64,000 bases of DNA from Thermoplasmata archaeon. Lineage in GTDB: Archaea > Thermoplasmatota > Thermoplasmata > Lutacidiplasmatales > UBA184. Location of the stretch: positions 44,316 to 108,315 of the forward strand of contig DATJWA010000016.1 in NCBI GenBank assembly GCA_035501555.1, in the 5' to 3' direction. A program made the translations under genes and the position numbers. The notes below the pieces were generated by a model. That model saw only the letters and a list, made by a program, of their open reading frames with translations, was not told where the DNA came from and ran no database searches. This document shows, in pieces, positions 8,410 through 51,444 of the stretch (the first letter of the stretch is position 1; every line of letters begins with the position of its first letter).

Positions 8410-8796
8410 GCCGAAGTCCACCCCCTCCTGTCCCTTCGAGACCCGCGGTAGTTGCCCAGCCGCACGGCTGGCACGACGCCGGCGGCCAGGACTCGACGGC
8501 GCGTCGCGGGTGACCCGATCCTTACGCTGCAAGCGGCACGTCTCTCCTTGCCGGGGTGCCGAGAACCCCTGCCGGACCCACGTGCCCCGTCCTTGAGGCA
8601 TCGGATCGGGGCTGTGGGCCCAGGGTGCCCCGCATGGTCAGCGGGACCGCCTGCTCGCCGTGGGAAGGGGGGCGATAGGCTGGACCTTCGCACCGCGCCG
8701 TAGCCCGCAGCCGGAGTTGACCAGGGCGCCGAGGAGGGAGCCCGACCGGCTACGACCGTCTCACGGGCCCATGCTCCGCGACGGAACCGTGCGCAC

Positions 8797-11366: not shown

Positions 11367-11393
11367 CGGAACGCTATCGGTGGGTCGCGCGTT

Positions 11394-25685: not shown

Positions 25686-26657
25686 TCAGTACAGTATTCC
25701 TGGCCGCGGGGATGGGGTCCGTATGTCCTCGCCCGAGGTCGTCCACACAAAAGGCCCAGGTACGCCTCGGCCCCTGCGGAAGTGCTCTCGGATGGCGTGG
25801 CGGAGCCGTTGTGCGCTGGGCGACTCTCCCGGCCGAACCCGCCGTCGAGAGAACTCCGAGACTAAGCGGTCCACGAGGGTCAGGCCGGCGCGGTCGGAGG
25901 GCAGGTAGTGGAGGTGGAACCTCGGATGCTGAGTGAGCCAGCGCGTCAGTTCCGGCGGGGCGGGTGCGAGACGACTGTCGAGGAGCAGATGGACGTCGAG
26001 CGGCGAGGGGGTCTCCCGCTCGATCACCTGGAGGAAGGCCCGGAACTCTTCGGCCTGGCCCCGGCGACGGAGTTCGTCCAGGGAGCGCAGCCCCGCGCGG
26101 CCCAGCCGGGGGGCCCCCGCCCGCTCGTCCGTGGAGAACGCGATGGCCCGCTCCGGTGGGTTCAGGTAAACCCCCACCATGTCGGTGACCTGGTCCAGGA
26201 AGCCCATCCCCCGCCCGCCCTCGGAGACCGGATGCCGCCGGGAGGGGGGCGCCCCTCTCGCCCTTACGATCCGCTGGACCGTGGACCTGCTCACCCCCGT
26301 CGCCTCGGCGAGACGCCGTACGGACCAGCGCCGGCCAGTCGGGTCCTCTCGGTCGAGGGCCTTGTGGATGACGAGTTCCACCTTCGAGTTTGGAACGGAC
26401 GGCGGCCGCCCCGACCGTGGGGCGTCACGCAGGACACCGGGCGTTCCGTGGAGGAGGAAGCGCCGTCGCCACCGTCCGACGGTCCCGGGGTCGGTGCCCA
26501 GTTCCGCTGCGATCTTTTGGTTAGGGACTCCCTCCGCCGCGCGCAGGACCACCCTCGCCCGCAGGCGCAGCCGGCCCGGGGCCGCGGAGTTCTCCGCGAG
26601 GGCCCGAAGCTCCCTCCATTCCTTCCGGTGGAGTCGGACGGAAGGGGCGACCCGCAC
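25686..26657 (-). CDS. IS630-family transposase
   Basis: N-terminal HTH region (GVPNQKIAAELGTDPGTVGRWRRRF...RRLAEATGVSRSTVQRIV) and a DDE-type C-terminal region (AFSTDE..., HLLLDS..., HPRFHLHYLPSDRAGLTLVDRLVSEF). The GTG start lies about 28 nt downstream of a TATA-like ctttatct inside the right terminal repeat. Confidence 0.8.
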   Translation of the reverse strand: MRVAPSVRLHRKEWRELRALAENSAAPGRLRLRARVVLRAAEGVPNQKIAAELGTDPGTVGRWRRRFLLHGTPGVLRDAPRSGRPPSVPNSKVELVIHKALDREDPTGRRWSVRRLAEATGVSRSTVQRIVRARGAPPSRRHPVSEGGRGMGFLDQVTDMVGVYLNPPERAIAFSTDERAGAPRLGRAGLRSLDELRRRGQAEEFRAFLQVIERETPSPLDVHLLLDSRLAPAPPELTRWLTQHPRFHLHYLPSDRAGLTLVDRLVSEFSRRRVRPGESPSAQRLRHAIREHFRRGRGVPGPFVWTTSGEDIRTPSPRPGILY

Positions 26658-33159: not shown

Positions 33160-34218
33160 ATGGATGACATTGACCTCGACGTTCTGAGGTGGATGTATCC
33201 GGGAGGCGTCTGGTCGCCCTGGGGAACCGATCCCCGAATCACCATCGCCGATATCGCCTCCCACGTCGGCCTGACTCGGACGGCCGTGTGGGCCCGGCTT
33301 TGCAAGTGGCGTAAGGTCGAGTTCTGGGACGGTTTCGAGACCCAAGTGAACCCCCGGATCTTCGGAGCCAGTGTGTCGATGGTGTCGTTCCACGTCGAGG
33401 ATTCCGCGCAAGGCTGGGAACTGCTGGACCGGACCGGCGCGATTCAGGGTGTGATGTGGGCGAGCCTCCTCTCCGGCTACTCGCTCGCCGCCCGGAACGT
33501 GACCTATGTATTGGTGACGATGTTGGCCGACACACGGGCCGACCAAGTGCGGCGCATGCGAGCCCTCCGCCGGTTGTCGCCATCGGGGGTCGTGGACGGG
33601 CCCGTCACGACCGAGCCCGTCCCGTGCTCCCGGTCGATGACCCCCCTGGATTGGCGGATCCTCTCCGCAATGGTCGCCCATCCGAATGCATCAGCGGCCC
33701 GACTCGCGTGCGATGTCGGGGTCTCTCTCAAAACCCTGGACCATCACCGATCCCTGCTCATTGACGACGGGGTGGTCTGCTCCACACCAAGGCTCGACTG
33801 GTCCAAGATCGGTTGTGTCGCACTCACCTTCTTTTGCCGGTCCCCCGAAGACGTGGATGTAACTGTCCGCGCGCTCGAAAGCCGTCTCCCCCACTCGATC
33901 CCGGTTTCGTTCCAGGGCCTTAACGGCCACGATTTCAAGGCCCCGAAGTGCTTCTGCTACTTGGTCCCGGCCCACTCGCCGCACGCGGTGCCTAGCCTCG
34001 TGCACGACCTCTCGCGGCTCCCCGGGGTCACTTCCGTGTTGCCCGAGCTGTGGGGGGCCCGGTGCGGGTTCACGGCTTGGGCCACGTCACGAATCGCCCA
34101 ACGTTTGTGCCCCCCAGTGACCGTGATGGCGGCCACCCCCGCGAGCGCAGTGGGTCCTGGAAGCGGAGGGCCGGGTCGCGGGGTTCGGGAAGAGCGCCCC
34201 GCGCTCGTGCCTGCCTAG
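33160..34218 (+). CDS. Transcriptional regulator with two Lrp/AsnC-type winged-HTH modules
   Basis: DLDVLRWMYP...ITIADIASHVGLTRTAVWARLCKW and LDWRILSAMVAHPNASAARLACDVGVSLKTLDHHRSLLIDDG are two HTH_AsnC-like units. Confidence 0.6.
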   Translation: MDDIDLDVLRWMYPGGVWSPWGTDPRITIADIASHVGLTRTAVWARLCKWRKVEFWDGFETQVNPRIFGASVSMVSFHVEDSAQGWELLDRTGAIQGVMWASLLSGYSLAARNVTYVLVTMLADTRADQVRRMRALRRLSPSGVVDGPVTTEPVPCSRSMTPLDWRILSAMVAHPNASAARLACDVGVSLKTLDHHRSLLIDDGVVCSTPRLDWSKIGCVALTFFCRSPEDVDVTVRALESRLPHSIPVSFQGLNGHDFKAPKCFCYLVPAHSPHAVPSLVHDLSRLPGVTSVLPELWGARCGFTAWATSRIAQRLCPPVTVMAATPASAVGPGSGGPGRGVREERPALVPA

Positions 34219-34454
34219 GCCGCGTTCTGCAACGGCCGTCGGGTCGGATACGAATTTCGCCCGCCCGCGGCGAGTCGTGCCCCGCCGAATCGCTCCACGG
34301 CGAAGACCCGATACGCGACTTCCGAATCGTTGCGTGTCGCTGAACAAGCGCTCTACTAGCCCGAGGGCGTTCTCCGGTTGAGAAGGTGCTCCGGGTAGCC
34401 ACGTGCTTCGGGGGCCTTCCCGAACTCGGGATCGGTGCGGGAAGAGGAAGAACC

Positions 34455-36113
34455 ATGAGCGAAGGAAGAGGCGCGGAATTCGGTGGAGATTCCTGGCTAG
34501 GTCGAGAGAGAAACCACGGTCGGCGGCGCTCGCGACGACTTGCACCGGCTGTGATCGGGATCTGCCTGGTGCTGATACTCGCGACCGCGCTTACGTTGGC
34601 GCTGGCACCGGGAGCTCGGGCGTCACCGACGTCACTCGGCTCAAGCGTCGTGAAGGTTCCTTGCGGGGGCAGCATCCAAGCCGCCATCAACGCGGCGCAT
34701 CCTGGGAGCACGCTCGCCCTCGCCCCGTGCACCTACGTCCAGCAGTTGACGGTCGACAAGTCCATCAACATCGTGGGCGCCGGGGCGGGGAAGACGATCA
34801 TCCAGAGTCCGGCGACTCTCGCCCCGGACGCATTTGGGAATCCGTGGACCATCGAGCTCGGTAGCGCTGCCACGGTTACCCTCTCGGGGTTCACCCTGGT
34901 CGTGACTCTCCAGTGCATCCAGGTCTCGGGGCTTTTCCCAGCCACCGGCCTGCTTGGCTACGCGGGCGGCGGGATCGGAGTCGGCGGCAGCGCAGTCCTG
35001 AACCTCCAGTCCGCGGTGGTCACCACTGCCGGGGCAACGACGGAGGGAGGCTCGTGCCCGAGTGGGCCCGGTTTCATGACCTACGGTACGGGGGTTGATT
35101 TCGGCCTGGACTATCTGACGGTCGGTAAGCCCGCCGCGAACCAGCTCGTCGGCTTCGGGACGGTCTCCGGAGTGACGTTCTCCGGATTCGGGTATGGCGG
35201 ACCGGCCATTGCGGTTGGCGGCGGAGCGAACTCGCCCGCGGGCAGTTACGCGCTGATTTCGGACAACCGCATATCGACGGCCGGAACCACGCTGCCCCTC
35301 GAAACCTGCCCCTGTGCCGCGGGCATCGCCGTCGGGAGCGGAGGGAACGCTAGCTCGGCAAAGATCATACAAAACGCTCTGGGGGTGGTGCCACTGCAAA
35401 CCACCGGTTTCCCTATCGTACTATCGTTCGGAAGCTACGCGTACATCGCTCAGAATTCCATCACGGGCGGTGGCTGGGGGGATGGGATCACGGTGGCTCT
35501 GTCCAGCTGGGCGACGATCACCGGTAATTCGATTGTCGGTACGGGCGCGACCGACTTTTACATCGGAATTTTCCTGCTGGGCGCCAGTGGTCTATCGACG
35601 ATCACGTTCAACTCGGTCACCGGGCCCGTGACCGGCTACGACATCGCGCTGAGCGAGAGCAGCGCACTGGTCGAGTTCAACTCAGTCGGCCAGTTCAGTT
35701 GCACATACGACGCGTCCCTGGTGGCCGCGGGGCTCTGCGGTCCGGACTTTTTGACCCAGTACCAGTTCAACGGAATCTACGACGCGTCCGATCCGGGTCT
35801 CGGAACCACGATCGCGGGCAACATCGTCTTCGACTCTGATGCCGGGATCGCGCTACTGGAGGGATGCTCGGGGTGCGTGGTGAAGGGCAACACCCTGCTG
35901 AACAGCTTCGACTACGGGCTCTGGGGGGTCGATGGGAGCTATGGCTTCTCCCAGAACTTGGTGGTGGGTGGAGCCTATGGCGTTGCCGCGACCGCATATT
36001 CCGTCAACACGACAGTGGTGCTAGCCCACGTGGCGATCGTCGGCCCGTCTGTCGCCCCGTTCTACACCGAGGTCGACTTCACCGGGGGCACAGCAACCAT
36101 CAGTGGAACGTAG
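34455..36113 (+). CDS. Secreted right-handed beta-helix repeat protein (NosD/pectate-lyase-like fold)
   Basis: I start it at ATG 34455 (MSEGRGAEF...). It has a basic stretch plus an anchor (LAPAVIGICLVLILATALTLALAPGARA). GSIQAAINAAHPGSTLALAPCTY is followed by many G/I/V-x-N/T/S beta-helix coils. Confidence 0.7.
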   Translation: MSEGRGAEFGGDSWLGRERNHGRRRSRRLAPAVIGICLVLILATALTLALAPGARASPTSLGSSVVKVPCGGSIQAAINAAHPGSTLALAPCTYVQQLTVDKSINIVGAGAGKTIIQSPATLAPDAFGNPWTIELGSAATVTLSGFTLVVTLQCIQVSGLFPATGLLGYAGGGIGVGGSAVLNLQSAVVTTAGATTEGGSCPSGPGFMTYGTGVDFGLDYLTVGKPAANQLVGFGTVSGVTFSGFGYGGPAIAVGGGANSPAGSYALISDNRISTAGTTLPLETCPCAAGIAVGSGGNASSAKIIQNALGVVPLQTTGFPIVLSFGSYAYIAQNSITGGGWGDGITVALSSWATITGNSIVGTGATDFYIGIFLLGASGLSTITFNSVTGPVTGYDIALSESSALVEFNSVGQFSCTYDASLVAAGLCGPDFLTQYQFNGIYDASDPGLGTTIAGNIVFDSDAGIALLEGCSGCVVKGNTLLNSFDYGLWGVDGSYGFSQNLVVGGAYGVAATAYSVNTTVVLAHVAIVGPSVAPFYTEVDFTGGTATISGT

Positions 36114-36253
36114 TCGGACACTCGATCGAGGACGATCCGGTTCCGGGGCTCGCCGAAGCCCCGGAACTCCCACGAGGAGTTGCTCAGGGGGAGCTCTCGG
36201 CGATGTCGTTGCGCGCTCGGCCGTCCCGGGATTAGGCTGAAGAGTCGAGGAAA

Positions 36254-36388
36254 TCGCCCGTGCTGGGAGGCGCCCAATTAACTAGGCATTTAGAATTCGC
36301 TTTGCCGTCAGTGGATGCATTTGGCGAAACGAGTTTCGCGTTCGGGAGCCCCTGCTCCCATTGACCTCGCCAGCGGGTCTCTCTTCCC
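36254..36388. repeat. R1: ~135-bp conserved element beginning with a copy of the tRNA-Arg 3' end
   Basis: 36254-36268 (tcgcccgtgctggga) is identical to 42694-42708 in the tRNA gene. The remainder aligns with R2 and R3 through shared blocks ccgtcagtgga, ttcggga and ctcccattgacctcgccagcgggtctc. Confidence 0.8.
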
Positions 36389-36474
36389 CAGCCAACCCGA
36401 GTCCGGGACCTGTCAACTCTGTCGACCCCGTTTGACGGTCTCTTCTTACGCACTTCTGCCGTTGGCTAGCCGCC

Positions 36475-37233
36475 ATGTGGCCCTCGGCGCTAACCGCCGC
36501 ACTTGGCATCGCCATCGGAGCCATCGTCGTTCTGATCCCCTTGGCCGTGCCTTCGTTCCAAGGGCTAGGCGCGGCATCCTCGCCCGGGGGGCCTCCGGTC
36601 GGGCTCGCCCCGGCTCCCCAGTCGCTACACCCACTGAACGCCACCGACTGCGGGTTGCTGAGCTCGTCGTACTTCGCGGGCACCGAGTCGTCGTTCGGCT
36701 GGCCCTCCAGCTACGCCAATGACACTGAGATCATCTGGGCGAAACTTTGCAACGACACTTCCTTCGAGTCGCTCCTCGCCGAGTGGGGAGGTTGGTACTG
36801 GATCCCGCCCGTTACGGCCAACGGAACTACGACCCCTGGCTACTGGATCGCGTCGAACCTCAGCATGCCCATCGAGGAGAGCGGGCCGCCATCCGCGTGG
36901 GGGAACTGGACGTACTTCACCGTGACTTGGTTGTCTTGGGCTAGCATTCCACCAAACGTCACCTCGACCTGCGGGGGCCCCCCGTGCCTCTGGAGCGAGG
37001 TCTGGGTGGCAAGCCTACCCGGTACCAGCTACACCGGTCCGTACCTCACGATCTCTTACTCATTCTCTGCTGGCGGCCCGCCCCCGTCCCACTCCTCCCC
37101 CGCACCCGTGAGCTCCCTCTGGGGTCTAGCGATTGCCGCGTGGGTTGGCCTTCTAGCCGGGGGCGGTCTCACCGCCGCGATGGCCATCCTCGTAGCTGTC
37201 CGCGTTCGTACGACCCGGCCCCCACCGCCGTAG
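36475..37233 (+). CDS. Hypothetical cell-surface protein with N-terminal signal/anchor and C-terminal TM
   Basis: 252 aa. MWPSALTAALGIAIGAIVVLIPLAV, a W/N/T-rich ectodomain with NxS/T sites, and a C-terminal helix LWGLAIAAWVGLLAGGGLTAAMAILVAV followed by RVRTTR. Confidence 0.55.
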   Translation: MWPSALTAALGIAIGAIVVLIPLAVPSFQGLGAASSPGGPPVGLAPAPQSLHPLNATDCGLLSSSYFAGTESSFGWPSSYANDTEIIWAKLCNDTSFESLLAEWGGWYWIPPVTANGTTTPGYWIASNLSMPIEESGPPSAWGNWTYFTVTWLSWASIPPNVTSTCGGPPCLWSEVWVASLPGTSYTGPYLTISYSFSAGGPPPSHSSPAPVSSLWGLAIAAWVGLLAGGGLTAAMAILVAVRVRTTRPPPP

Positions 37234-37426
37234 GGCATCTCACGACAGGAGAAGGGTTGGCCAAGTCGGGACTCGTCGCCGCTGGGTCCGGGCGGGACTC
37301 TCTGGAAGCGTTTCGAACCCATCCCCCTCAGGGCACTCCTCTTGAGCCATCAGATCCGCCAGAGGATGCGTTCTGGTCTAGAAGGGTTCGGACTAACGAC
37401 TTCCGAGCCTTGCAGCTCGCGAACGC

Positions 37427-37449
37427 GACTCGCCCGCGCTGGGATTCGA
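37427..37449. repeat. Rx: isolated 23-nt copy of the tRNA-Arg 3' end (att-like fragment)
   Basis: gactcgcccgcgctgggattcga matches 42691-42713 at 22 of 23 positions. It covers the 3' acceptor strand, the T-stem strand and part of the T-loop. It lies in a 400-nt non-coding gap. Confidence 0.7.
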
Positions 37450-37631
37450 GCAACTACCTATTCGAATCCACAGTCCGATGGGGACATGGGACCCATGCTC
37501 CGCGGGTAAGGCCGAATTCGCCGTCTTCCAACGTTTCCCATGGCGTCGATGAGGAAGTCGGTCGCTCCTCCCCTGCGGAGTGGGTCGCACGTCCTGACAG
37601 CCGACGCGCTTCGGATCGTGGATCGGGCGAC

Positions 37632-39080
37632 CTAGCGACGAGCGATTCGCAGGATTGCCTCGATAGATGTATCGACATCCTCCTCGGTCGTCGCCCACGA
37701 GCTCACGCTGATGCGCATGGCGGTGGTCCCGTGCCAGACGGTTGAACCGGCCCAGAGCGTTCCCTCGTTCTGAACTTCGGTAACCACTCGAAGAGTCCGG
37801 GCGTCGTCCCCAAAGGAGACCAAGACCTGATTCAGCACGACATCGTTGAGGATGGAGAAACCGGCCGCACGAAGTCGGGTAGCAAATCTCTGGGCGAACC
37901 CACAAGTGCGCTCGACAAGGGCCGCCAGCCCCGTGCGGCCGAGCGAACGAAGCCCAGCCCAGCAGGCAATCCCTCGCGCACGTCGCGACATTTCGGGAAC
38001 GGCATCCATCGGCTCACTCGAATTCGTCCCGGCGAGGTAGGCCGCCGCGGGAGTCGACATCGCGGCGCGGAGGGGGTGCGGCTCTGGAACGAAGGCGATG
38101 CCGCAATCGTAGGGAACATTCAGCCACTTGTGACAGTCGGTCGCCCAGGAGTCGGCTCGTTCGGTTCCATCGGCGAGCGAACGCAGCCGGGGGGAAGCCC
38201 GCGCCCAGAGCCCAAAGGCACCGTCAACGTGGACCCATGCACCGGCGTTGTGGGCTAAGTCGCATACCTCGCCGACCGGATCAAAGGCCCCCGAGTTGAC
38301 GTTCCCAGCTTGAGTGCACACGATCGTGGGTCCGAGCAACGGGGGGATCCGGTCGGCTCTCATGCGGCCCTGCGCGTCGACCGGGACGCGTACCAGGCCG
38401 TCCAAGGCGAATCCTAGAATCGAGAGGGCCTTGAGGACCGAGACATGGACCTCTTCGCCAACCACGACGGTGACTGGCGGAGCCGCCTGGAATCCCTGAC
38501 GGCGTACGTCCCATCCCGCCTTCGACAGCACGGCCTGACGGGCGGATCCTAGGCAGGTCAGGTTGGCCATGGTGTCGCCCGTGACGAGCGCCCCCCGACA
38601 GCCCACCGGTAGGCCGAAGATCTCACGGACCCACTCGACCGAGATCTGCTCGAGACGTGCTGCGACGGGGGACATCACCGTCAGTGCACCATTTTGGTCC
38701 CACGTCGAGGTCAACCAATCTGCGGCCAGTGCCGCAGGCAGCGCGCTCCCGACGATGAAACCGAAATACCTCCCCCCGGCCGAAGCGACCGTCGCCGGTG
38801 ACCCGGCGTGATCGAGGAGGGCGATCACGCGAGACGGATCGAGACCGTCCTGCGGAAGTGGAGACGCGAACCGGTCGAGCCCGTCCACCTCTGTAGCTAG
38901 GGGCGCCACGCGTCGTGTCCGGAGGCTCGCAAGGTACTTGGAAGCTGCAGCCGCGGTCTCCATCAGAAGTTCGTCCATCGTCGGGCCTAAGGGTCCTAGA
39001 GAGACCGGCCTTAGAAGGTTACAGTCGCCTGCAGGGGGACTTTCCCCGGCCAGCTCGAAAGGAGCAGTCTGGTCCTCCAC
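37632..39080 (-). CDS. Pyridoxal-phosphate-dependent group II decarboxylase
   Basis: SGAFDPVGEVCDLAHNAGAWVHVDGAFGLW...ADSWATDCHKWLNVPYDCG contains the PLP-lysine motif (HK) of the aspartate-aminotransferase-fold decarboxylases. The start may instead be ATG 38978 (MDELLMETAAAASKYL). Confidence 0.85.
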   Translation of the reverse strand: MEDQTAPFELAGESPPAGDCNLLRPVSLGPLGPTMDELLMETAAAASKYLASLRTRRVAPLATEVDGLDRFASPLPQDGLDPSRVIALLDHAGSPATVASAGGRYFGFIVGSALPAALAADWLTSTWDQNGALTVMSPVAARLEQISVEWVREIFGLPVGCRGALVTGDTMANLTCLGSARQAVLSKAGWDVRRQGFQAAPPVTVVVGEEVHVSVLKALSILGFALDGLVRVPVDAQGRMRADRIPPLLGPTIVCTQAGNVNSGAFDPVGEVCDLAHNAGAWVHVDGAFGLWARASPRLRSLADGTERADSWATDCHKWLNVPYDCGIAFVPEPHPLRAAMSTPAAAYLAGTNSSEPMDAVPEMSRRARGIACWAGLRSLGRTGLAALVERTCGFAQRFATRLRAAGFSILNDVVLNQVLVSFGDDARTLRVVTEVQNEGTLWAGSTVWHGTTAMRISVSSWATTEEDVDTSIEAILRIARR

Positions 39081-39188
39081 CGACGGTTCTGAGTGGAGGT
39101 TCGGGTAGGAGCGTTGGGGGAGCTTCGGTCACGTCCGATTGAGGCGGACGCACTGCCCCGACCATGAGCCTCGCGGCTGGGAGGATGA

Positions 39189-39325
39189 ACTCGCCCGTGC
39201 TGGGAGGCGCCCAAATAATTGGGCACTTAGGATTCGTCTCACCGTCAGTGGATGCGCTTGCAGAAACGTGTTTTGTGCTCGGGGACCCCGGCTCCCATGG
39301 ATCTCTCCGGCGCGCCCGTCTTCCC
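39189..39325. repeat. R2: second copy of the ~135-bp element
   Basis: 39189-39205 (actcgcccgtgctggga) is identical to the tRNA 3' end. The rest aligns with R1 and R3. Confidence 0.8.
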
Positions 39326-39464
39326 AGGATTTGCTGAAGTAGCCCGACACTGATGTCGCCGGCCGCCCATTCGAGAACTGTCGGCCCCGAGCAGTCGCCG
39401 CTTCAGAAGCTGTTAATCGATTCTGGGGCTTACAAGATGTTGTCGACGCGGGAGCGCGATCGGA

Positions 39465-40022
39465 ATGGACCGGCCAGCCTGGCGGTATGCCTTGGCGATC
39501 AGCCTGGCGGTGGTTATCGCCGCTGTCCTGATCCTGGCCCTGTTTGAGCTGGCCCCCAGCGGGTCTCAAGGCCGGGAAGCCTTCAACGGAGTCGCCCTGT
39601 CCATCACCTACGTCGGGAGCTCTGTGGGGATTTACGGTCCGGTTCACCAGAACGCCTGTCTCCAGGAACCCCTTCTGTCGCCCGAGGGACCTCTCGGTCC
39701 CAGCTGCCCGAACAACCTCACGGCGGGAACCGAGTACAACTTCACCATCTTCGAGTTGTTCGTTCCCTATGATCTTGACAGCCACAGCATTTCCGAGATG
39801 TTCCTCAATGTCACCATCTCCTCGCCCATTGCACTCTCTCAAACCGTTTGCGGCGTAGCCCAGTCATCTCCCCCGACGCAGCGATCCTCATTGGGCCTCG
39901 AGCTCCCGCCGGGAATTGGATGCGCGTGGACGATCAGCTTTGTCGCACCCAGCCCCCTGCCGGCGACCCTCCCCGGAGTCGGAATCTGGATGGCCGCTAC
40001 GATGTCGGTTGACGCCGTGTAG
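39465..40022 (+). CDS. Hypothetical signal-anchored secreted protein (185 aa)
   Basis: N-terminal anchor (YALAISLAVVIAAVLILALF) and a beta-rich Cys-containing ectodomain. I recognise no family. Confidence 0.5.
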   Translation: MDRPAWRYALAISLAVVIAAVLILALFELAPSGSQGREAFNGVALSITYVGSSVGIYGPVHQNACLQEPLLSPEGPLGPSCPNNLTAGTEYNFTIFELFVPYDLDSHSISEMFLNVTISSPIALSQTVCGVAQSSPPTQRSSLGLELPPGIGCAWTISFVAPSPLPATLPGVGIWMAATMSVDAV

Positions 40023-40089
40023 TCATTCACTTCGCGGTGGCCGGCCCCAACATGCGAGCGGCCGACGGGGCCATTCGTTCGGCACGCTC

Positions 40090-40275
40090 GTCGCGGTCTG
40101 GTCATCGGTCGCGCAAAACGGGCTCCCGTACCAGAGGGACTCGCCCGCGCTGGGAGGCGCAGAAATAGATGGGCACTTAGGACTCGTTTCACCGTCAGTG
40201 GAGGCGCTTGGCAAAACCAGTTTCGAGTTCGGGAACCCCCGTTCCCATTGACCTCGTCGGCGGGTCTCGCTTCCT
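40090..40275. repeat. R3: third copy of the ~135-bp element, plus ~45 nt of left flank homologous to the flank of the tRNA gene
   Basis: 40134-40155 matches 42687-42708 at 21 of 22 positions. 40090-40133 also aligns with 42645-42686 (ggtcatcggtc.cgc.aaacggg.tcccg). 40156-40275 aligns with R1 and R2. Confidence 0.8.
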
Positions 40276-40362
40276 AAAGTTGAGAACCTCGTGCCTACTG
40301 TCAACTGACCCTCCTACCCTCTCCAGCGATTTTGACTTGTATACCAGTCGCGCTTCTTCTGG

Positions 40363-40899
40363 TTGTTGAAGAATCTCCGACGGCTAGCAGGGATCGTTGC
40401 AATCGCCGCAGTCATCCTCGCGGCGACGTTGGGAGCGTACATTTTAGTGGGACTCCAGCCGGCGCAGCTTCCTCAATGCGCAGCCGGAACTTCCGAAGTT
40501 CTACTGGACGCGCAGCCCATTCAGGCCCCGCCGCTGACCCTGGGTAACCTCACGAACTCATCTCGAGGGTCCAACCATTGGTACAACTTCTCGGTCGAAG
40601 AGGCGACTCCCTGTGCCACGTTGGGTCCTCTGTCGTTCCAGATCGGGTTTCCCTCCGGTGCAAACGCAACGTTGCCCCCCGGGGCGGGGGTTGCGGTCAT
40701 CGTACCTCCCGGATCGGTTGAAGCGGCCTTCACCTTCGGGACAGGATGGTCGTACGGAGCCGGATTTGGTCCAGGCACAGTTGTGACGACCCAGGACGAA
40801 CTCTCGATCTCCTACACCGGTTCTACGCCAGCTTCTCTCGTGGGAGCTTGGCTGATCATCCAGTTTGCCCGAGGCACGGCCGCGACGTCGGTCGCTTAA
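40363..40899 (+). CDS. Hypothetical signal-anchored secreted protein (178 aa)
   Basis: TTG start about 23 nt downstream of a TATA-like ttgtatac (40337-40344). Anchor LAGIVAIAAVILAATLGAYILV and a beta-rich ectodomain with NxS/T sites. Confidence 0.5.
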   Translation: MLKNLRRLAGIVAIAAVILAATLGAYILVGLQPAQLPQCAAGTSEVLLDAQPIQAPPLTLGNLTNSSRGSNHWYNFSVEEATPCATLGPLSFQIGFPSGANATLPPGAGVAVIVPPGSVEAAFTFGTGWSYGAGFGPGTVVTTQDELSISYTGSTPASLVGAWLIIQFARGTAATSVA

Positions 40900-41139
40900 C
40901 GAGTCCCTCATCTGATGCAGTCTCCTCGCCTGGGCTAATGATCCAGCGCGAGGGAGTGCACCCGACGGGGGCCAGGCGAACGCTCGGTCGGGCCGTAGAA
41001 GCCCTATGGACGGAGTATCGCCTTGCACCTAACCCGCCCCGGCCCCTACGGAAGGTGGGCGGGGCCGGTCTCCCGACCCGGCCAAGAAATCGTCTGTGGT
41101 CCGATTTCTCCGAAGCCGTTTTCTGACAGAGATATGGTA

Positions 41140-41197
41140 CTGGATGCCCACACTAGTGGGTGGTATCCCCTGCTCCCATTGACCTCGCCGGCGAGCC
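41140..41197. repeat. R4: truncated copy keeping the distal block of the element
   Basis: cccctgctcccattgacctcgccggcgag (41167-41195) closely matches 36349-36377 of R1. The tRNA-like core is missing. Confidence 0.6.
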
Positions 41198-41332
41198 TAT
41201 CGTGCATGGGGTCGCGGGACCGGCTTTCCCATGATATATTCAATCGAGCTGTCCTTCCAGGACATGGGTCCCGGTGACGACTGACGCCTCTTTCGGAGTC
41301 GTCACTTTGGGCGCGCTCCCAAAGATGGACGC

Positions 41333-41644
41333 ATGAGAACTCGAAGAGCGATCCTTCCACGCCGTCGCTTCGGTATCGGGATGACAATCCTGACGGTCCT
41401 CGGTATCGCCCTCCTGTTAGTCGCGCTTTTGATTCCGCCGGTTGTGGTGGTCTCTTGGCCTTGTCAATCGCACTCGTGCCCGCCTTTCAACTCCCCTTCT
41501 GAACAGACTTCGGTCTCCCCCTGGGCCTTGCTTGCGTGGTACTCTGGACTGGTTCTCGTAATAGTGGGCGCGGTCGGTCTCCTATGGTTCGGATGGCGTC
41601 GATACCGGGAATCGAAGAGCCCGCGCGGACCACCCCCTGCCTGA
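41333..41644 (+). CDS. Hypothetical small two-helix membrane protein (103 aa)
   Basis: A basic N-terminus, two hydrophobic helices (IGMTILTVLGIALLLVALLI and LLAWYSGLVLVIVGAVGLLWF) and a Cys-containing loop. Confidence 0.4.
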   Translation: MRTRRAILPRRRFGIGMTILTVLGIALLLVALLIPPVVVVSWPCQSHSCPPFNSPSEQTSVSPWALLAWYSGLVLVIVGAVGLLWFGWRRYRESKSPRGPPPA

Positions 41645-41675
41645 CTCGCTCCCACTGACCTCACGGCGGGTCTCC
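41643..41675. repeat. R5: short derivative of the element
   Basis: gactcgc followed directly by tcccactgacctcacggcgggtctcc. This looks like the core start joined to the distal block. Confidence 0.45.
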
Positions 41676-41768
41676 TTCTGTGAAGTTGGGAATCGGGTCC
41701 TGCGCGCTCATCGCGGTCCCGTCATCGACCTTGGGGGGCCGGCATCGAGCCCGCGGGTCGGTGGACAA

Positions 41769-42566
41769 TCAGAGTTCCGGGCTAGCGGACCGAATGATCA
41801 GCGTCACGTTCTGGTCTCCATCCCAGGCCACTCCAACCCGAAGATTGTTGGACATGGTTTCCTCGCACATGATCGGAAGGCTCACGCCGGGAGGGCGGAT
41901 GCCGCAATTATACGCCGGAGGTCCCCCGAGTGCCGACTGCAGCAAGGTACTGCCATTCGCGCCAACCGCGACGATGTCGAAGCCGGATCCCGCGGGGTTC
42001 GGCGGGAACTCGCTAAAGTGGAAGGTGATTCCCTGAAACGTCACGTTACAGAACCCCAGCTGGCAGTCCGGCTTTCTATCACCTGGGGGAAACGTGACGG
42101 TCGAAAGAGCGTACTCCGGCTGGGGCCAGGCCGCCCGCAGCAGGACCGTATCGGAGTGAGCCGAGCTGGAGAGCCAAGTTACGCCAAAAGTCTTGTCAGC
42201 CGCGGTGAAGTTGCTGAGGCCGCCGCATGCTCGGCAGCCTGGTGGGACTGCCCACGATACGTTGTTGGTGTCAATCAGTGCGAGTTCCATCCCGCTGGGC
42301 CCGACAGCAGCGCCCGTGAGCCAGTTGGTGCCTACGATGTACTCCGGCCAGAGGTGGAACAGGATGCCACCGAAGCTGAAATTCGACTCGGGGCCGGAGA
42401 GGTTGCCGCCATTGACTGGGATGCGTACGACCTCCGAAGCATAGTTAACGGCTGAACTGGTCGGAGCAGTGGGATGGTTCGCGATGGCAACTAGCCCAAC
42501 GGTCGCAACGACGACCAGAGCCGCCATCACGATGGCCGAGAGGGCGACCCCCGAAGGCTCCCACAT
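41769..42566 (-). CDS. Hypothetical signal-anchored secreted protein (265 aa), Cys-rich
   Basis: Anchor VALSAIVMAALVVVATVGLVAIA and an ectodomain with several Cys pairs and NxS/T sites. I recognise no family. Confidence 0.55.
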   Translation of the reverse strand: MWEPSGVALSAIVMAALVVVATVGLVAIANHPTAPTSSAVNYASEVVRIPVNGGNLSGPESNFSFGGILFHLWPEYIVGTNWLTGAAVGPSGMELALIDTNNVSWAVPPGCRACGGLSNFTAADKTFGVTWLSSSAHSDTVLLRAAWPQPEYALSTVTFPPGDRKPDCQLGFCNVTFQGITFHFSEFPPNPAGSGFDIVAVGANGSTLLQSALGGPPAYNCGIRPPGVSLPIMCEETMSNNLRVGVAWDGDQNVTLIIRSASPEL

Positions 42567-42694
42567 GGAAACAAACAGGCCCCAGAAGCGTATGCGTCTT
42601 CCTCTGAGTCGAACGACGGGGGCCTCGTGTGGACGGCCCGATCAGCGCGGTCGGTCATCGGTCACGCGAAACGGGTTCCCGCGTTGGAGGGACT

Positions 42695-42802
42695 CGCCCG
42701 TGCTGGGATTCGAACCCAGGTCTGAGGCTCCGCAGGCCTCTAGGATAATCCATTGCAGCGGACCGGGGGAGGACCCCGGTTCCGTAGCTACCCCACACGG
42801 GC
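42695..42802 (-). tRNA. tRNA-Arg (anticodon GCG) with a ~31-35-nt insertion in the D-arm region (probable non-canonical intron); no encoded CCA
   Basis: The reverse complement reads GCCCGTG-TG-GGGT-AGC...[hairpin ACCGGGG-TCCTC-CCCCGGT]...CAATGGATT-ATCC-TA-GAGGC-CTGCGGA-GCCTC-AGAC-CTGGG-TTCGAAT-CCCAG-CACGGGC-G. It has a 7-bp acceptor stem, a 5-bp anticodon stem with a CU-GCG-GA loop, and a canonical T-arm. At 108 nt it is about 30 nt longer than a normal tRNA. Confidence 0.75.
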
Positions 42803-42843
42803 AATCGTTCGGGAGCGGTCCCGGCGCCGCCGAGCGGAGTCGC

Positions 42844-42935: not shown

Positions 42936-44252
42936 ATGGTCGAAGAGAAGTCGAGCGACCCATGGCCCGAACTTCGCGACCTGCCCATGGGCCGCCGGGT
43001 GGAATTTACGGACGGGCGAGGCCAGACCTACACGGGCACCGTCGTTACCCGCCACGGGTTTCTCGGCGACCGGATCCTCCAGCTGAAGCTCTCCAGCGGC
43101 TACAACGTTGGGATCCGGGTCGACCCCGGTTCAAGCTTTCGTCTGCTTCCGGACTTGGCCCGGGAAGCCCCCGAGGAGCCCTCTCCCGCCCGTCCGGGAC
43201 CCGCGGGACCGGCGGGCGGCTGGGTCGCTCTCCTGACGACGGGTGGCACCATCGCTTCCCGAGTCGACTACGAGACCGGAGGGGTCCGACCGGTCAAGGG
43301 AGAGGCCGAGATCCTCGCCTTCTACCCGGAGCTTGAGCGCAGCGGGCCGGTGCGGATCGTTCCCGTCTTTGACCGTTTGAGCGAGGACCTCCGACCGGAC
43401 GACTGGGTCACGCTCGGCGGGCACGTCGTCACCGCGTTCCGGGACGGGGCGACGGGGGTCGTCATCGCTCACGGCACGGACACCCTCGGCTTCACGGCGG
43501 CAGGCTTGAGCTTCCTGCTCGCCGACCTCCCGGGGCCGGTCGTCGTCGTGGGGGCCCAGCGGTCGCCCGACCGGCCCTCTTCGGATGGCCCCTCGAACCT
43601 GCAGGCAGGCGTGCAAGTAGCCCGGGAGGCCCGGCTGGGAGAGGTCGTGGTCGTGATGCACGCCGGACCCTCCGATACTCGATTCGCGATCCATCGGGGC
43701 ACATGGGTGCGCAAGATGCATTCGAGCCGGCGCGATGCCTTCGAGAGCCGGAATGGGCCCGAACTCGGTGGGGTGCAGGACGGCCGGGTCTCCCTCGGTC
43801 CGCTGGCCCGCCCGCCGACGCCGGGCCCGGCCCGCCTGGATGGGCCCATCGACGCCCATGCGGCCCTGCTCTGGTCCTTCCCGGGCCTTTCTGCCAAGAC
43901 CGCCCGCGCCGTCGCGCTGGACGTCCGAGGACTCGTGCTCGCCGGGACCGGGCTCGGCCACGTCGCGTCCGAGCACCTCGAGTGGATCCGTGAGGCCACC
44001 GGTCGGGGCACGTTGGTCGCGATGACCACGCAGTGTCTCGGAGGTCGTGCCGACCCATTCGTCTATGCGACGGGCCGCGACCTGATGGCGGCCGGCGTCC
44101 TCTACCTGGACGACCTCCTTCCGGAGACGGCCTACGCCAAGATGGTGTGGGCGCTCGGGCACGCCGCTTCCCGGGAGGGCGTCGCTGAGCTCCTGACCAT
44201 CCCGCGCGCGGGCGAGTTCCTCGACCGGCACGCGGGGGTCCGCGGGCCATGA
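42936..44252 (+). CDS. gatD: Glutamyl-tRNA(Gln) amidotransferase subunit D
   Basis: Starts at ATG 42936 (MVEEKSSDPW...). N-terminal barrel region followed by an asparaginase-like domain (ALLTTGGTIASRVDYETGGV...VVIAHGTDTLGFTAAGLSF). The ORF-track start at 42753 overlaps the tRNA gene. Confidence 0.9.
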   Translation: MVEEKSSDPWPELRDLPMGRRVEFTDGRGQTYTGTVVTRHGFLGDRILQLKLSSGYNVGIRVDPGSSFRLLPDLAREAPEEPSPARPGPAGPAGGWVALLTTGGTIASRVDYETGGVRPVKGEAEILAFYPELERSGPVRIVPVFDRLSEDLRPDDWVTLGGHVVTAFRDGATGVVIAHGTDTLGFTAAGLSFLLADLPGPVVVVGAQRSPDRPSSDGPSNLQAGVQVAREARLGEVVVVMHAGPSDTRFAIHRGTWVRKMHSSRRDAFESRNGPELGGVQDGRVSLGPLARPPTPGPARLDGPIDAHAALLWSFPGLSAKTARAVALDVRGLVLAGTGLGHVASEHLEWIREATGRGTLVAMTTQCLGGRADPFVYATGRDLMAAGVLYLDDLLPETAYAKMVWALGHAASREGVAELLTIPRAGEFLDRHAGVRGP

Positions 44253-49513: not shown

Positions 49514-50635
49514 CTAGTGGACGACGTCCAGTTCGGGGCCCGACCTGCGGACCGGCCCCGACGGGGTCGCCGACCCCCCGAAAATCTGCGGGGATTTAAC
49601 TCCGGTCACCACCAGCATGACGCGGATGGTGCTCTGCATCGTCGGGTCGACGGCCGCTCCCCAGATGATCCGGGCGGTCGGGCTGATCGTCTTCTGGACA
49701 ACCTCGGCAGCCTTCTGGGCCTCGCTGACGGTCATGTCCGGTCCGCCGGTGACGTTGATCAGCGCCCCCGAGGCCCCGGCGATGTCGACGTGCAGGAGGG
49801 GGGAGTTGATCGCCTCCATCACGGCGTCCTCGGCCCGGTTCTCGCTCTCCGACTCGCCGATCCCGATCAGGGCGACCCCGCCGCCCTTCATGATCGTGCG
49901 CAGGTCGTTGAAGTCGAGGTTGACGAGCCCCGGTCGGGTGATGATCTCGGTGATGCCGCGGATCGCTCGCGCGAGCACCGAGTCCGCGACCTTGAACGCG
50001 GTCTGGATCGGGAGGCGGGGGACGAGCTCGAGGAGCCGGTCGTTGGGGATCGTGATGACCGTGTCGATGGTCGCACGCAGCTTCTCGAGCCCCCACATCG
50101 CGTTCTCCGCGCGGACGAGCCCTTCCGAAGCGAACGGGAGCGTGCAGACCGCGATGGTCAGGGGATTGCCGCCGTTCGCGTCCTTGGCGCACTGGGCGAC
50201 GACGCCCGCCGAGCCGGTGCCCGTCCCGCCGCCGAGCCCGAGGGTGATGAACACCATGTCGGAGTTCGACAGCGACTTCTTGATGTCGTCCTCGGCCTCG
50301 TGGGCGGCCTGCTCCCCCACCTGGGGGAGCGCTCCCGCCCCGAGCCCGCGCGTGAGGCGCCGGCCGAGCAGGATCTTCCGCGGCGCGTGGATGGCGAGCA
50401 GGTGCTGGGCGTCCGTGTTGCAGGCGACCAGCTCGACCCCGGAGATCCCTTCCTCGGCGAGCCGGTTGATCGTGTTGCACCCGCCGCCCCCGCACCCCAC
50501 CACCTTGATGTTCGTCTTCAGGGAGGCGAGCACCGCCTCCAGTTCGGCGTCATCGTTCGTCGGCGGCGGGGGCTCCTGGCCTCGACGGCTCTCGCCGGGG
50601 AGGTGCGCCAAGATCTCTTGCGCCAGCGGTCGCAT
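49514..50635 (-). CDS. ftsZ: Cell-division GTPase FtsZ
   Basis: [33 protein letters not shown] and [12 protein letters not shown] prefer ATG 50635 (MRPLAQEIL...) because the ATG at 50671 abuts the TATA box. Confidence 0.9.
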
Positions 50636-50670
50636 CACAGGTCTCTCCGGCGGTAGGAGCAGGGGACCCA

Positions 50671-50678
50671 TTATAAAG
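50671..50678. promoter_or_regulatory. Shared near-palindromic TATA box (ttataaag) for divergent ftsZ and mptE-like genes
   Basis: Its centre is 26-27 nt upstream of the GTG at 50701 on the plus strand (leaderless). On the minus strand it is about 40 nt upstream of ATG 50635, giving a 5' UTR of about 13 nt. Confidence 0.5.
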
Positions 50679-50700
50679 CGTTGGTCGCGAATCGGGGGTC

Positions 50701-51444
50701 GTGGAGTACTCCCGCTGGGCCCCCCTCTACCGACGGATCGGCGAGGAGCTCGGCCTGCCGTTCGCGCGGGAGGAGCAGGCCTTTGCGCAGCTCCGAGCGC
50801 TCCTTCCCGCCGTCGCCCGACAACAACCGCTCGAGCGGATCGCCCCCCGCTTGGCCGGTCGCGAGGTCGTGGTGGTGGGGCTCGCGCCCGACGCGGGACC
50901 CCCTCCCCTCTGGCGCCGGCCGGCGGGGGCGGAACGGCTCGCCGTGGTCGCGGCGGACGGCGCGACGACCGCGTGCCTCACCGCGGGTCTCGTACCTGAC
51001 CTGGTCGTCACCGACCTGGATGGACCGATCCCCGCGGAGCTCTCGGCCAACCAGCGAGGGAGTCTGGTGGTCGTGCACGCGCACGGAGACAATGCGGACG
51101 CGGTCGCGGAGTGGGTCCCGCAATTCCCGGGAGAGCTGGCCGGTTCCTGGGCCGGTCCTCCCCGCGACGGGATCATCGATGTCGGGGGATTCACGGACGG
51201 GGACCGCGCCGCCTTCCTCGCCGACCACGTCGGCGCGGCTCGGATCCTGTTGTGGGGGTTCGACTTCGAGCGGGTCGTCGAGGCCGACGCCCGCTCGGCG
51301 GAACGGAAGCGGAGGAAGCTCGTGTGGGCCGGGCGCGCCCTCCAGGAGCTCGCGGCGGAGGGTCGGACCCCGCTCTTGACGTGGGAGCGCGACGGGACCC
51401 TCGCCCCTTATCCGGCGGGGATCAAGGGCGCGTCCACGAGGTAG
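50701..51444 (+). CDS. mptE: 6-hydroxymethyl-7,8-dihydropterin pyrophosphokinase, archaeal MptE-like (DUF115)
   Basis: LVVTDLDG and VVHAHGDN are the hallmark DUF115/MptE motifs. The ~247-aa length also fits. Confidence 0.7.

Follow-up and report, generated by a model that had tools for sequence, protein, structure and literature searches.

Repeats carrying two tRNA 3′ ends as probable attachment regions of small gene modules at a tRNA-Arg locus of an uncultured Thermoplasmata archaeon

What is the function of a spacer element of about 140 bp that recurs ahead of single genes for small secreted proteins which bear no resemblance to one another? The question arises from a stretch of 64,000 nucleotides of a Thermoplasmata archaeon (hereafter the window), in which an earlier note, made from the sequence alone, had recognised a cassette-like array and had placed a recombination site first among the candidate functions. 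The evidence gathered here fits both ideas. The decisive test was one that the note had itself proposed, namely whether the repeats sit next to tRNA genes: the repeat, called R in the following, starts with the 3′ end of the neighbouring tRNA-Arg, and in its distal block the 3′ end of a tRNA-Trp can be recognised. We consider it probable that R is the attachment (att) region of small cargo modules that accumulated one behind another at the end of tRNA-Arg(GCG), on its 3′ side. The further statement that no element of this form had been described does not hold, since direct repeats of tRNA ends around tandem integrations are well documented (PMC8371274; 10.1101/2020.12.28.424599).

The copies of R in the window are the following.

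36254..36388, plus strand: R1, distal junction of the whole island; Arg core 36254-36268, 80-nt spacer 36269-36348, Trp core 36349-36360, tRNA-Trp-type flank 36361-36388
39189..39325, plus strand: R2; Arg core 39191-39205, Trp-type core 39286-39297
40139..40275, plus strand: R3; Arg core 40141-40155, Trp-type core 40236-40247
41140..41206, plus strand: R4, partial and older copy; Trp core 41167-41178 and flank kept, Arg core eroded
41645..41678, plus strand: R5, remnant of the Trp-type core and flank only, immediately 3′ of the p103 stop codon

R1, R2 and R3 had been judged alignable over their full length at about three-quarters identity, and this estimate was accurate: taken as 36247-36392, 39184-39329 and 40134-40279, they align without gaps over 146 nt with pairwise identities of 77.4, 78.8 and 76.7% (79-81% over 141 nt in a repeat search), and nhmmer recovers the full copies within the window with E = 4e-51 to 2e-50. 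Likewise, the shortened copies do retain only the distal block. R4 is a significant partial copy (41158-41206; HMM E = 6e-7 and 1.6e-5), and R5 is weak by HMM (E = 0.08) but matches the 20-base pattern TCCCAYTGACCTC-N1-3-CRGCGRG, found four times in the window, always on the plus strand, in R1, R3, R4 and R5, with 0 matches expected.

R has a constant architecture of ~140 bp, made of an Arg core, a spacer with a fixed length of 80 bp, and a Trp core with its flank. Over its initial ~15-22 bp, R is the reverse complement of the tRNA-Arg(GCG) 3′ end, and the Arg core comprises the 3′ strands of the T-stem and acceptor stem, the discriminator and a few flank bases. The distal block corresponds to the 3′ end of tRNA-Trp(CCA) followed by the 3′ flank of that gene: homology between the window and the related locus L140 begins exactly at 36349, and the L140 sequence before that point is a bona fide tRNA-Trp (Rfam 41.8 bits) ending in ...CCCCCTGCTCCCA. 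The Trp core, which we infer to be in use, could serve as a second core or, alternatively, be a scar left by former residence at tRNA-Trp. Between the two ends, the spacer and the body of R are ~80% conserved with zero indels across six copies, and an AT-rich box (AAATAAT or AATTAAC) with a GC-rich inverted repeat on either side stands out in a genome of 69% GC.

The tRNA-Arg gene and the other parts of the locus that bear on its history are listed here.

42694..42803, minus strand: tRNA-Arg(GCG) gene, the target (attB) whose 3′ end recurs; intron of ~37 nt; conserved upstream of gatD in relatives
42936..44252, plus strand: gatD, conserved core gene adjoining tRNA-Arg(GCG) and anchoring synteny
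42653..42693, plus strand: present tRNA 3′ flank, interpreted as Pl, the left arm of the module nearest the tRNA, from its repeat match to the R3 left arm
40100..40141, plus strand: R3 junction, left arm (Pl); homologous to the 3′ flank that the tRNA has at present
37428..37469, plus strand: X junction, second-type copy of the tRNA-Arg 3′ end; identity into the T-loop, then an inverted repeat GGATTCGAGCAA..TTCGAATCC
36114..36253, no strand assigned: ancestral tRNA-Arg 3′ flank (B′ side), now split from the tRNA by the island; homologous to the L067/L079 spacer

The tRNA-Arg(GCG) gene, whose acceptor stem is perfect when its intron is taken into account, stands intact at one end of the inserted DNA, and exact or near-exact direct repeats of its end lie on its 3′ side in the gene's own orientation. 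Indeed, the Arg core CGCCCGYGCTGGGA has five copies in the window, including that of the tRNA itself, and every copy lies on the plus strand within 36255-42708; 0.31 copies would be expected by chance. The left arm of R3 matches 42653-42708 with 84% identity over 56 nt, and this arm also precedes cores in L139 and L141, at 86-92%. X-type junctions occur at L104 7407 and L141 172-216 as well.

The five direct copies of the tRNA-Arg end cut 36254-42694 into four low-GC modules, given here with their genes.

36254-37430: module A, cargo p252
37431-39191: module B, cargo decarboxylase
39192-40141: module C, 950 bp, p185 its sole gene
40142-42694: module D, with p178, p103 and p265
36475..37233, plus strand: p252, ORF for a signal-anchored protein that also has an anchor at its C-terminus and contains numerous N-x-S/T sites; 13 homologues
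37632..38978, minus strand: PLP-dependent decarboxylase (Pfam Pyridoxal_deC), 66-71% DNA identity to bacterial plasmid genes
39465..40022, plus strand: p185, signal-anchored protein; single homologue (51%), in the L136 array at tRNA-Arg(CCG)
40363..40899, plus strand: p178, candidate signal-anchored protein with a TTG start; missed by public gene callers
41333..41644, plus strand: p103, ORF for a candidate small membrane protein; missed by public gene callers
41769..42566, minus strand: p265, ORF for a signal-anchored protein, last gene of module D

The gene adjoining the tRNA encodes a membrane protein. The composition of the island departs from that of the host genome, with a GC of 0.61-0.65 versus 0.70-0.73 beyond the tRNA and a GC3 of 0.62-0.79 in the cargo versus 0.84-0.95 in core genes; the ORFs at 40363 and 41333 have a weak GC3 (0.65 and 0.62). 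Each protein encoded 3′ of an R copy has an N-terminal hydrophobic segment, as read by eye from the sequence, and none matches a Pfam or PHROG family. Several details of the earlier description proved correct: R1-R4 lie 87, 140, 88 and 136 nt upstream of plus-strand ORFs (~90-140 nt had been claimed), the encoded proteins share no significant pairwise similarity, and R5 follows the stop of the gene at 41333 with no gene after it. The proposed pairing of R with secreted-protein genes, by contrast, is not general, as R-like or sister junctions of relatives precede RibD_C, zinc-ribbon, PIN, ParE, glyoxalase and methyltransferase genes.

Comparison with related genomes reveals the uninterrupted site. 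In L067 and L079, a beta-helix gene and a conserved spacer run straight into the tRNA-Arg end, whereas in the window they run into the R1 core. The window spacer (36114-36253) is homologous to theirs, including a conserved hairpin TTCCGGGGC..GCCCCGGAA, its last bases, cgaggaaat, are those of the tRNA flank of L057, and the beta-helix proteins of the window and the orthologue are 58% identical. As the left flank of R1 is contiguous with the tRNA in relatives, the 6.4 kb between them is an insertion. Furthermore, extra copies of the tRNA end are strongly biased in side and orientation. In ~55 non-redundant gatD loci of related Thermoplasmata, searched with a 13-mer of the tRNA end, the tRNA 3′ side (220 kb) holds 22 extra direct copies and 0 inverted ones, and the other side (308 kb) holds 2 copies; among the 36 loci whose flank extends over 1.5 kb or more, 13 carry extra copies, and the modules that they bound in relatives measure 0.75-6 kb.

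The arms on either side of the core are joined combinatorially, the window, L139 and L141 together displaying Pl_D-core-R, Pl_D-core-X, Pl_A-core-X, Pl_A-core-R, Pl_D-core-tRNA and B′-core-R. Module A (R, p252 and arm) recurs as a unit at L141 1449-2636 with 81% identity over 1211 nt and different neighbours, and module neighbours differ in both L139 and L141, which come from more distant genomes. A sister case is provided by the only homologue of p185, which lies in L136 in an array of 300-nt repeats starting with the tRNA-Arg(CCG) 5′ end. These comparisons leave very little room for a plain tandem segmental duplication of the tRNA-proximal region followed by divergence, without site-specific recombination. 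This disfavoured scenario would suit the direct orientation and close spacing of the R copies, but the genes between the copies are unrelated, homology stops sharply at the cores, arms are joined in differing combinations in other genomes, and 13 of 36 related loci show the phenomenon with unrelated arms, in every case on the tRNA 3′ side.

In the att reading that we favour, a circular module would consist of a left arm, a core and a right arm, the copy of the tRNA-Arg 3′ end being the crossover core, and would recombine with the tRNA end by means of a site-specific recombinase, most likely a tyrosine recombinase, which is absent from the modules and would have been supplied in trans or lost. 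Each integration would rebuild the tRNA end and shift the older end copy and the older modules outward, the expected outcome being B′-core-[R1: p252]-core-[X: decarboxylase]-core-[R2: p185]-core-[R3: p178, p103, p265]-tRNA. Several findings speak against this reading, among them the outcomes of the searches and the conservation of the spacer given below. The modules, at 0.75-6 kb and mostly 1-3 kb with 1-3 genes, are too small for autonomous elements, and decay is most advanced in R4 and R5, the copies nearest the tRNA, the opposite of a simple accretion with the newest module next to the tRNA.

Searches for the recombinase and for a source of the modules were conducted at several levels. Among the matches listed, no integrase appeared in the scanned ORFs of the window (ORFs selected by GC3 within parts of 0.6-29 kb and 50-60 kb; L001 annotation for 29.5-50 kb), no Phage_integrase-type match in the islands of 14 related loci, and no integrase, replication or virion gene in the ~25 modules examined; none was found around L139 and L141 either. 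For the pooled ORFs the matches listed comprise 25 families, beyond which weak ones could have escaped. Five assemblies of the same population, with identical p185, p252 and p265, have the same order, and neither a circular form nor a presence/absence polymorphism was seen among them. No virus or plasmid searched carries a matching attP, and BLAST of the island returned nothing against phages and the decarboxylase gene only against plasmids. A pattern scan of GTDB genomes for Arg-core...CCGTCAGTGG gave seven bacterial matches, all due to chance by nhmmer, and an initial pattern scan of metagenomes and scans of viral contigs with R-type, X-type and L013-type cores gave 0 or short chance matches only.

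The zero-indel, 80%-conserved spacer implies a constraint for which the att model alone does not account. This 80-bp segment may contain binding sites for the recombinase or an accessory protein, a promoter, or both. R, or at least its spacer and distal part, could be a shared promoter, operator or 5′ leader for the first gene of each module, with tRNA-derived ends that would be incidental; this possibility, which could also hold alongside an att role, is one that we regard as rather unlikely. The next gene lies on the same strand and points away at ~8 of 9 R-type or R-like junctions (four in the window, two in L141, one each in L055 and L089), the distal block is 87-140 nt from the start codon, and a gene for a two-HTH AsnC-type regulator is conserved nearby; the AT-rich box with its flanking inverted repeat and the absence of indels in the six R copies would also suit such a role. 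However, the AT box is ~250 nt away from the start codons, no TATA-like element conserved at a fixed distance from the starts was noticed on reading the sequence, R is followed by minus-strand genes in L139 and R5 by no gene, and a promoter would leave both the tRNA-end identity of the R ends and the switching of flanks at these ends unaccounted for.

The strictly conserved length of R and the stable hairpins predicted in it would also be compatible with a structured small RNA or a tRNA-like RNA encoded on either strand, the more so as its minus strand ends in a tRNA-Arg-like 3′ end and preserves a 6-bp hairpin, GGGAGC/GYTCCC, which is kept in 35 of 36 cells and has one position where G-C, G-U and A-U all occur. 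This conserved hairpin, though, is the acceptor stem sequence of tRNA-Trp, and Rfam yields no family match for R even at E<=10, only the tRNA itself being found both at the gathering threshold and at E<=10. Folding z-scores of R range from -1.9 to +0.6, and for three as well as for six sequences RNAalifold gives a positive covariation term on either strand. Two helices had been thought to change by paired substitutions; the change from GGGAGC/GCTCCC in R1 to GGGAAC/GTTCCC in R3 is a true double change, but in the other helix only one of the two sides is broken or altered. The covariation check proposed at the same time lends no support to a structured RNA, as no pair changed on both sides among the six full copies from three genomes and pairing (91.0%) equals that of shuffled controls (91.2%). 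Nor does the R body have significant similarity to that of the tRNA-Arg gene, and we regard a structured RNA as very improbable. The separate idea that the R body is a whole tRNA-Arg gene in diverged form was rejected, given that 522, 31 and 134 of 1000 shuffles scored at least as high as the local alignment.

The int(N) fragment of SSV-type integrases is similar in size to R, and one minus-strand frame is open across all three R copies and into the core. R copies might thus be remnants of split integrase genes, left as an int(N) fragment beside att, a class of integrase that has been described (PMC7253208). Against this origin, which we hold to be extremely improbable, the amino-acid identity in this frame (~63% by hand count) is lower than the nucleotide identity, and no int(C) partner is present beside the tRNA. 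Variable sites are moreover spread evenly over the codon positions (16, 17 and 14), R ORFs match no Pfam or PHROG family, and R was rejected as a protein-coding sequence on these two counts.

The att reading has precedents. tRNA genes are the usual targets of archaeal integration, for which tandem integration and integrase loss are described (PMC8371274), and elements integrated in tRNA genes have been surveyed in Thaumarchaeota (PMC6563490). The tandem elements at archaeal tRNA genes reported in these studies resemble the present array in the tRNA-end target, the direct end repeats bounding the insert, the rebuilt tRNA, the several tandem insertions per locus, the documented loss of integrases and the atypical composition. 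They differ from it in that the ~25 modules here lack integrase, replication and virion genes among the matches listed and mostly span 1-3 kb with 1-3 genes, and in that the junction holds two different tRNA ends. For the host lineage, uncultured Thermoplasmata of soil and peat, we found no elements of this type described. The tycheposon islands of Prochlorococcus, in which partial tRNAs strewn through the islands are marks of old integrations (10.1101/2020.12.28.424599), are also alike in lying beside tRNA genes, in successive integrations that displace older ones outward, in scattered partial tRNAs marking older events and in a cargo of niche genes. Tycheposons, however, are bacterial, encode their own tyrosine recombinase and are known from many intact copies, whereas only integrase-less modules were seen here.

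Integrons, which have been reported in archaeal MAGs, carry IntI, attI and Pc at the head of the array, and their attC sites, of the form R″-L″...L′-R′ with a GTTRRRY core, are conserved in structure more than in sequence. Their cassettes share with the present modules a mostly single-gene, promoter-poor organisation, sites of 60-140 bp with imperfect inverted symmetry, a cargo of toxin-antitoxin and unknown small proteins, and a recombinase located outside the cassettes. Unlike integrons, the array has no adjoining IntI, attI or Pc; a tRNA gene and then gatD form its head, and the scanned ORFs of the window include no recombinase among the matches listed. In contrast to attC with its R′/R″ core, R has a tRNA end as its core, shows conservation of sequence (80%, no indels) and belongs to an array anchored at a tRNA. 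CIMEs, the cis-mobilisable, att-flanked elements without recombination genes of the Streptococcus thermophilus ICESt family, are integrase-less, bounded by att sites, found in tandem with related elements and thought to be moved by an integrase acting in trans, as could be the case here; they are bacterial, located at the fda gene and visibly derived from ICEs, in contrast with the tRNA site and archaeal host of the present modules, for which no parental autonomous element is known.

The building of genomic islands by integration at tRNA ends is known, and what seems unusual here, from sequence comparison, is the tiny size of the modules, the lack of a detected integrase and the presence of two tRNA ends per junction. 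The absence of an integrase from ~25 modules (among the matches listed), together with 1-3 genes per module and two-tRNA junctions, suggests a trade in very small cassettes without an integrase of their own. If this is true, a conserved intergenic repeat would be a readable record of gene acquisition, each copy marking a single recombination at a tRNA gene, and the intervening modules would be units of horizontal transfer in never-cultured Thermoplasmata of soil and peat. Such a mode of gene capture would stand between classic integrative elements and integrons, and a variable repertoire of surface proteins could be found downstream of tRNA-Arg(GCG) beside gatD. If the modules are merely decayed remnants, the locus would be an ordinary tRNA-linked genomic island. 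A bolder and doubtful extension is that a cassette system resembling integrons is at work in these arrays of uncultured Thermoplasmata, one in which integrase-less modules of 1-3 kb, each with an att unit of ~140 bp made of back-to-back Arg and Trp tRNA 3′ ends, would be captured, excised and reshuffled at tRNA-Arg(GCG), or alternatively at tRNA-Trp(CCA), by a recombinase encoded elsewhere, these tRNA genes being the attI-like sites at which a pool of genes for surface proteins, toxins and enzymes would dock.

Two minor observations concern the distribution of the repeats. In a comparison with MITEs, a weak end-to-end complementarity of R is predicted, without covariation, and copies occur only in tRNA-anchored arrays among the loci seen. 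A sixth match to CGCCCGYGCTGGGA, with one mismatch, is located at 21802.

The repeated element R, of about 140 bp, occurs in the window as three full copies, R1, R2 and R3, which the earlier note had aligned by eye and which indeed form a gapless alignment of 146 nt with pairwise identities of 77–79%. A search of the window with nhmmer recovered R1–R3 at E ~1e-50 and also bears out the two truncated copies that had been proposed, R4 (E = 6e-7) and, weakly, R5, both of which carry the 20-base pattern of the distal block; this pattern occurs four times (R1, R3, R4 and R5) versus none expected by chance. As had been described, a small plus-strand ORF starts 87–140 nt 3′ of R, and the products of these ORFs are mutually unrelated, with no Pfam or PHROG family matched. 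Through homologues of p252, the signal-anchored protein encoded after R1, three further loci were reached (L139, L140 and L141).

Copies of R in related loci, and the tRNA gene of the window
L141, 1450–1600: full-length R, directly upstream of the p252 homologue
L141, 2613–2762: full-length R
L139, 9020–9169: full-length R
L139 and L141: extra partial copies of R
Window, 42694–42803, minus strand: tRNA-Arg(GCG) gene

Across three genomes, the six full copies contain no internal indels and have a mean column identity of 80%. Two independent assemblies of the same population end at or just before R3 (L002 at about window position 40379 and L003 at about 40098), which would fit either assembly breaks caused by the repeat or heterogeneity of the junction.

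Looking for tRNA genes beside the copies, as had been suggested, proved informative, the left end of R being the 3′ end of the tRNA-Arg(GCG) gene: the first ~15 bases of every copy (CGCCCGYGCTGGGA) are the reverse complement of this end. The resulting Arg core spans the T-stem 3′ strand, the acceptor 3′ strand and the discriminator, and a few bases to its left likewise match the tRNA 3′ flank. The left flank of R3 (40100–40141) shares 84% identity with the present tRNA 3′ flank. The gene has a non-canonical intron of ~37 nt in the D-arm/anticodon-stem region, because of which ARAGORN by default returns a tRNA of only 69 nt with a poor acceptor stem and the Rfam tRNA model scores 27.9 against a gathering score of 29; with introns permitted, the gene has a perfect acceptor stem. 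This tRNA-Arg is found ~240 nt 5′ of gatD in essentially all of the relatives compared, and the intron-bearing form is kept in nearly all of them, with differing intron sequences. Over the 64 kb, a degenerate pattern for the 14-mer Arg core has five zero-mismatch matches, all on the plus strand between 36255 and 42708, and a sixth with one mismatch at 21802 (chance expectation 0.31). The fourth copy of the Arg end outside the tRNA, at 37431, belongs to a second type of junction, X (37428–37469), in which identity extends into the T-loop and the right arm is different. With introns allowed, ARAGORN also calls a "tRNA-Gly" with a 1082-nt intron at 50385–51561, almost certainly spurious because coding ORFs overlap it.

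The right end of R derives from a second tRNA. The p252 homologue of L140 immediately follows a tRNA-Trp(CCA) gene (41.8 bits with Rfam, against a gathering score of 29) that terminates in ...GGGGGTTCAAATCCCCCTGCTCCCA, and L140 and the window share homology (77% over 563 nt) that starts exactly at window position 36349, at CCCCTGCTCCCA of the distal block. The distal block therefore consists of the T-stem 3′ strand, the acceptor 3′ strand and the discriminator of tRNA-Trp, then its 3′ flank. R is thus built of two tRNA 3′ ends placed back to back (Arg reversed, Trp forward) and flanking a spacer of 80 bp. In the window there are five Arg-type cores and five Trp-type cores or remnants (36349, 39286, 40236, 41167 and 41645).

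This origin bears on the structured RNA that the earlier note had considered, as the GGGAGC/GCTCCC pair, read there as a covarying hairpin, is in fact acceptor-stem sequence of tRNA-Trp. RNAalifold on three copies gave a covariation term that is positive on both strands, with one double change. Among the six copies there are no double changes, and 91.0% of alignment cells are paired versus 91.2% in shuffles (477 of 500 shuffles reach or exceed the observed value), so that the compensatory changes do not stand as evidence for RNA. Furthermore, no Rfam family matches R and single-sequence folds of R are not unusually stable (z from −1.9 to +0.6); nothing positive speaks for R as an RNA, and this reading seems to us very unlikely. 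Two other readings were rejected. A coding remnant under selection is contradicted by the absence of codon periodicity (16, 17 and 14 variable sites per codon position) and of any family match for ORFs running through R, and the similarity of the body of R to the body of the tRNA-Arg gene is not significant.

The window, whose GC content is 68.7%, lies on a contig of 189 kb from an uncultured Thermoplasmata archaeon, and its right side encodes gatD/gatE, ribosomal protein L11, Spt5 and FtsZ. GC is 0.61–0.65 over ~35–42.7 kb versus 0.70–0.73 to the right of tRNA-Arg, and GC3 is 0.62–0.79 for genes of the island (36254–42694) versus 0.84–0.95 for core genes. In the related loci L067 and L079, an orthologue of the beta-helix protein of the window (58% identical in L067; L079 also retains the adjoining HTH gene, 50%) precedes a conserved spacer that leads straight into the tRNA 3′ end. 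The same spacer in the window (36114–36253) enters the core of R1, after which the sequences diverge, and the 6.4 kb from R1 to the tRNA are thus an insertion. The two-HTH AsnC-type regulator (33160–34218, plus strand) and the NosD-like beta-helix surface protein (34386–36113, plus strand) form a conserved pair beside tRNA-Arg, as in L079. The beta-helix gene may itself be module cargo, because in L067 it is flanked by a tRNA-end copy and the tRNA itself.

Comparison of the junctions shows a switch of arms, the sequences flanking the core. Module A (R1 with p252 and the right-hand arm up to the next core, 36254–37430) is 81% identical to L141 1449–2636 over 1211 nt; the junction after it is X-type in the window and R-type in L141 and L139. 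The window arm found before R3 and before the tRNA recurs at 86–92% identity in L141, ahead of an X-type core and of one further core, and in L139, ahead of an R-like core. Several left and right arms are thus joined in varied combinations, and the joint is always at the same ~17 bases (ACTCGCCCGYGCTGGGA), the signature of site-specific recombination there. The non-coding stretch 3′ of p252 (37233–37453) is 89% identical to L139 8832–9052, with the p252 proteins at 63%; either this arm is constrained or the p252 surface protein evolves fast. The PLP-dependent decarboxylase of module B (37632–38978, minus strand) shares 66–71% DNA identity with genes on plasmids of Streptomyces, Gemmatirosa and Sinorhizobium, and may be cargo of bacterial origin.

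Copies of the tRNA end are a general pattern in the lineage. Across ~55 non-redundant gatD loci, the 13-mer tRNA end (one mismatch allowed) has 22 extra direct copies and no inverted one within the 220 kb lying 3′ of the tRNA, and two copies in 308 kb on the opposite side; at least one copy is present in 13 of the 36 loci having at least 1.5 kb of flank. Copies are spaced by 756–6134 bp, and each is followed by a type-specific arm, usually an inverted repeat taking in part of the core. The link to secreted-protein genes proposed in the earlier note is not general, since the cargo of relatives' modules includes PIN and ParE toxins, glyoxalase, RibD_C, DUF4440, beta-helix and beta-propeller surface proteins, zinc-ribbon proteins and small membrane proteins. 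Furthermore, the sole homologue of p185, the protein encoded after R2, sits in a comparable array in L136, where two 300-nt repeats (8118–8417 and 11153–11452, 83% identical) open with the first 16 nt, from the 5′ end, of tRNA-Arg(CCG) (13752–13827), then continue with an AT-centred inverted repeat, GTATTGGGCGAATTAATTGGTCCAATAC; the stretches on their left side likewise show homology to the region upstream of this tRNA. The architecture is that of the window, placed at the 5′ end of a different tRNA.

R is, in our view, probably the attachment region of small cargo modules that site-specific recombination has stacked at tRNA-Arg(GCG). The mechanism that we infer follows the anatomy of the region and established tRNA-targeted elements of archaea and bacteria (PMC8371274; 10.1101/2020.12.28.424599): a putative recombinase would act on the modules at the tRNA-Arg core, the Trp core being a candidate second core. 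Because its length is strictly conserved, the spacer points to a further constraint; candidates are an att arm with phased protein-binding sites and/or a promoter/operator for the first cargo gene.

Some observations count against this reading. The modules are too small for autonomy, and no integrase is among the matches listed for the window (GC3-selected ORFs in parts of 0.6–29 kb and 50–60 kb, the island ORFs and the annotation of the L001 assembly over 29.5–50 kb), for islands in 14 related loci or for the surroundings of L139 and L141; nor was a matching att sequence found on a virus or plasmid. Five assemblies of the same population agree in the order of modules. Decay is greatest in R4 and R5, the copies closest to the tRNA, which does not fit the simplest order of accretion. 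A working cassette system, in which modules would dock at tRNA genes through a recombinase supplied in trans, seems unlikely to us.

Elsewhere in the window, at 25686–26657 (minus strand), a 323-aa protein has HTH_23, HTH_28, HTH_29 and HTH_32 matches, as in the N-terminus of IS630-/IS481-like transposases, with no catalytic domain detected. Finally, at L013 4162–4216 and 6680–6735 and at L071 3952, the acceptor 3′ strand is fused to its own complement to give a "collapsed tRNA" hairpin, for example GCCCG-TGCTGG-CGGGC followed by CGGGCGCCTGA-CTAA-TCAGGCGCCCG, a design shared by the tRNA-Trp-derived hairpin of R, GGGAGC-CCCT-GCTCCC.
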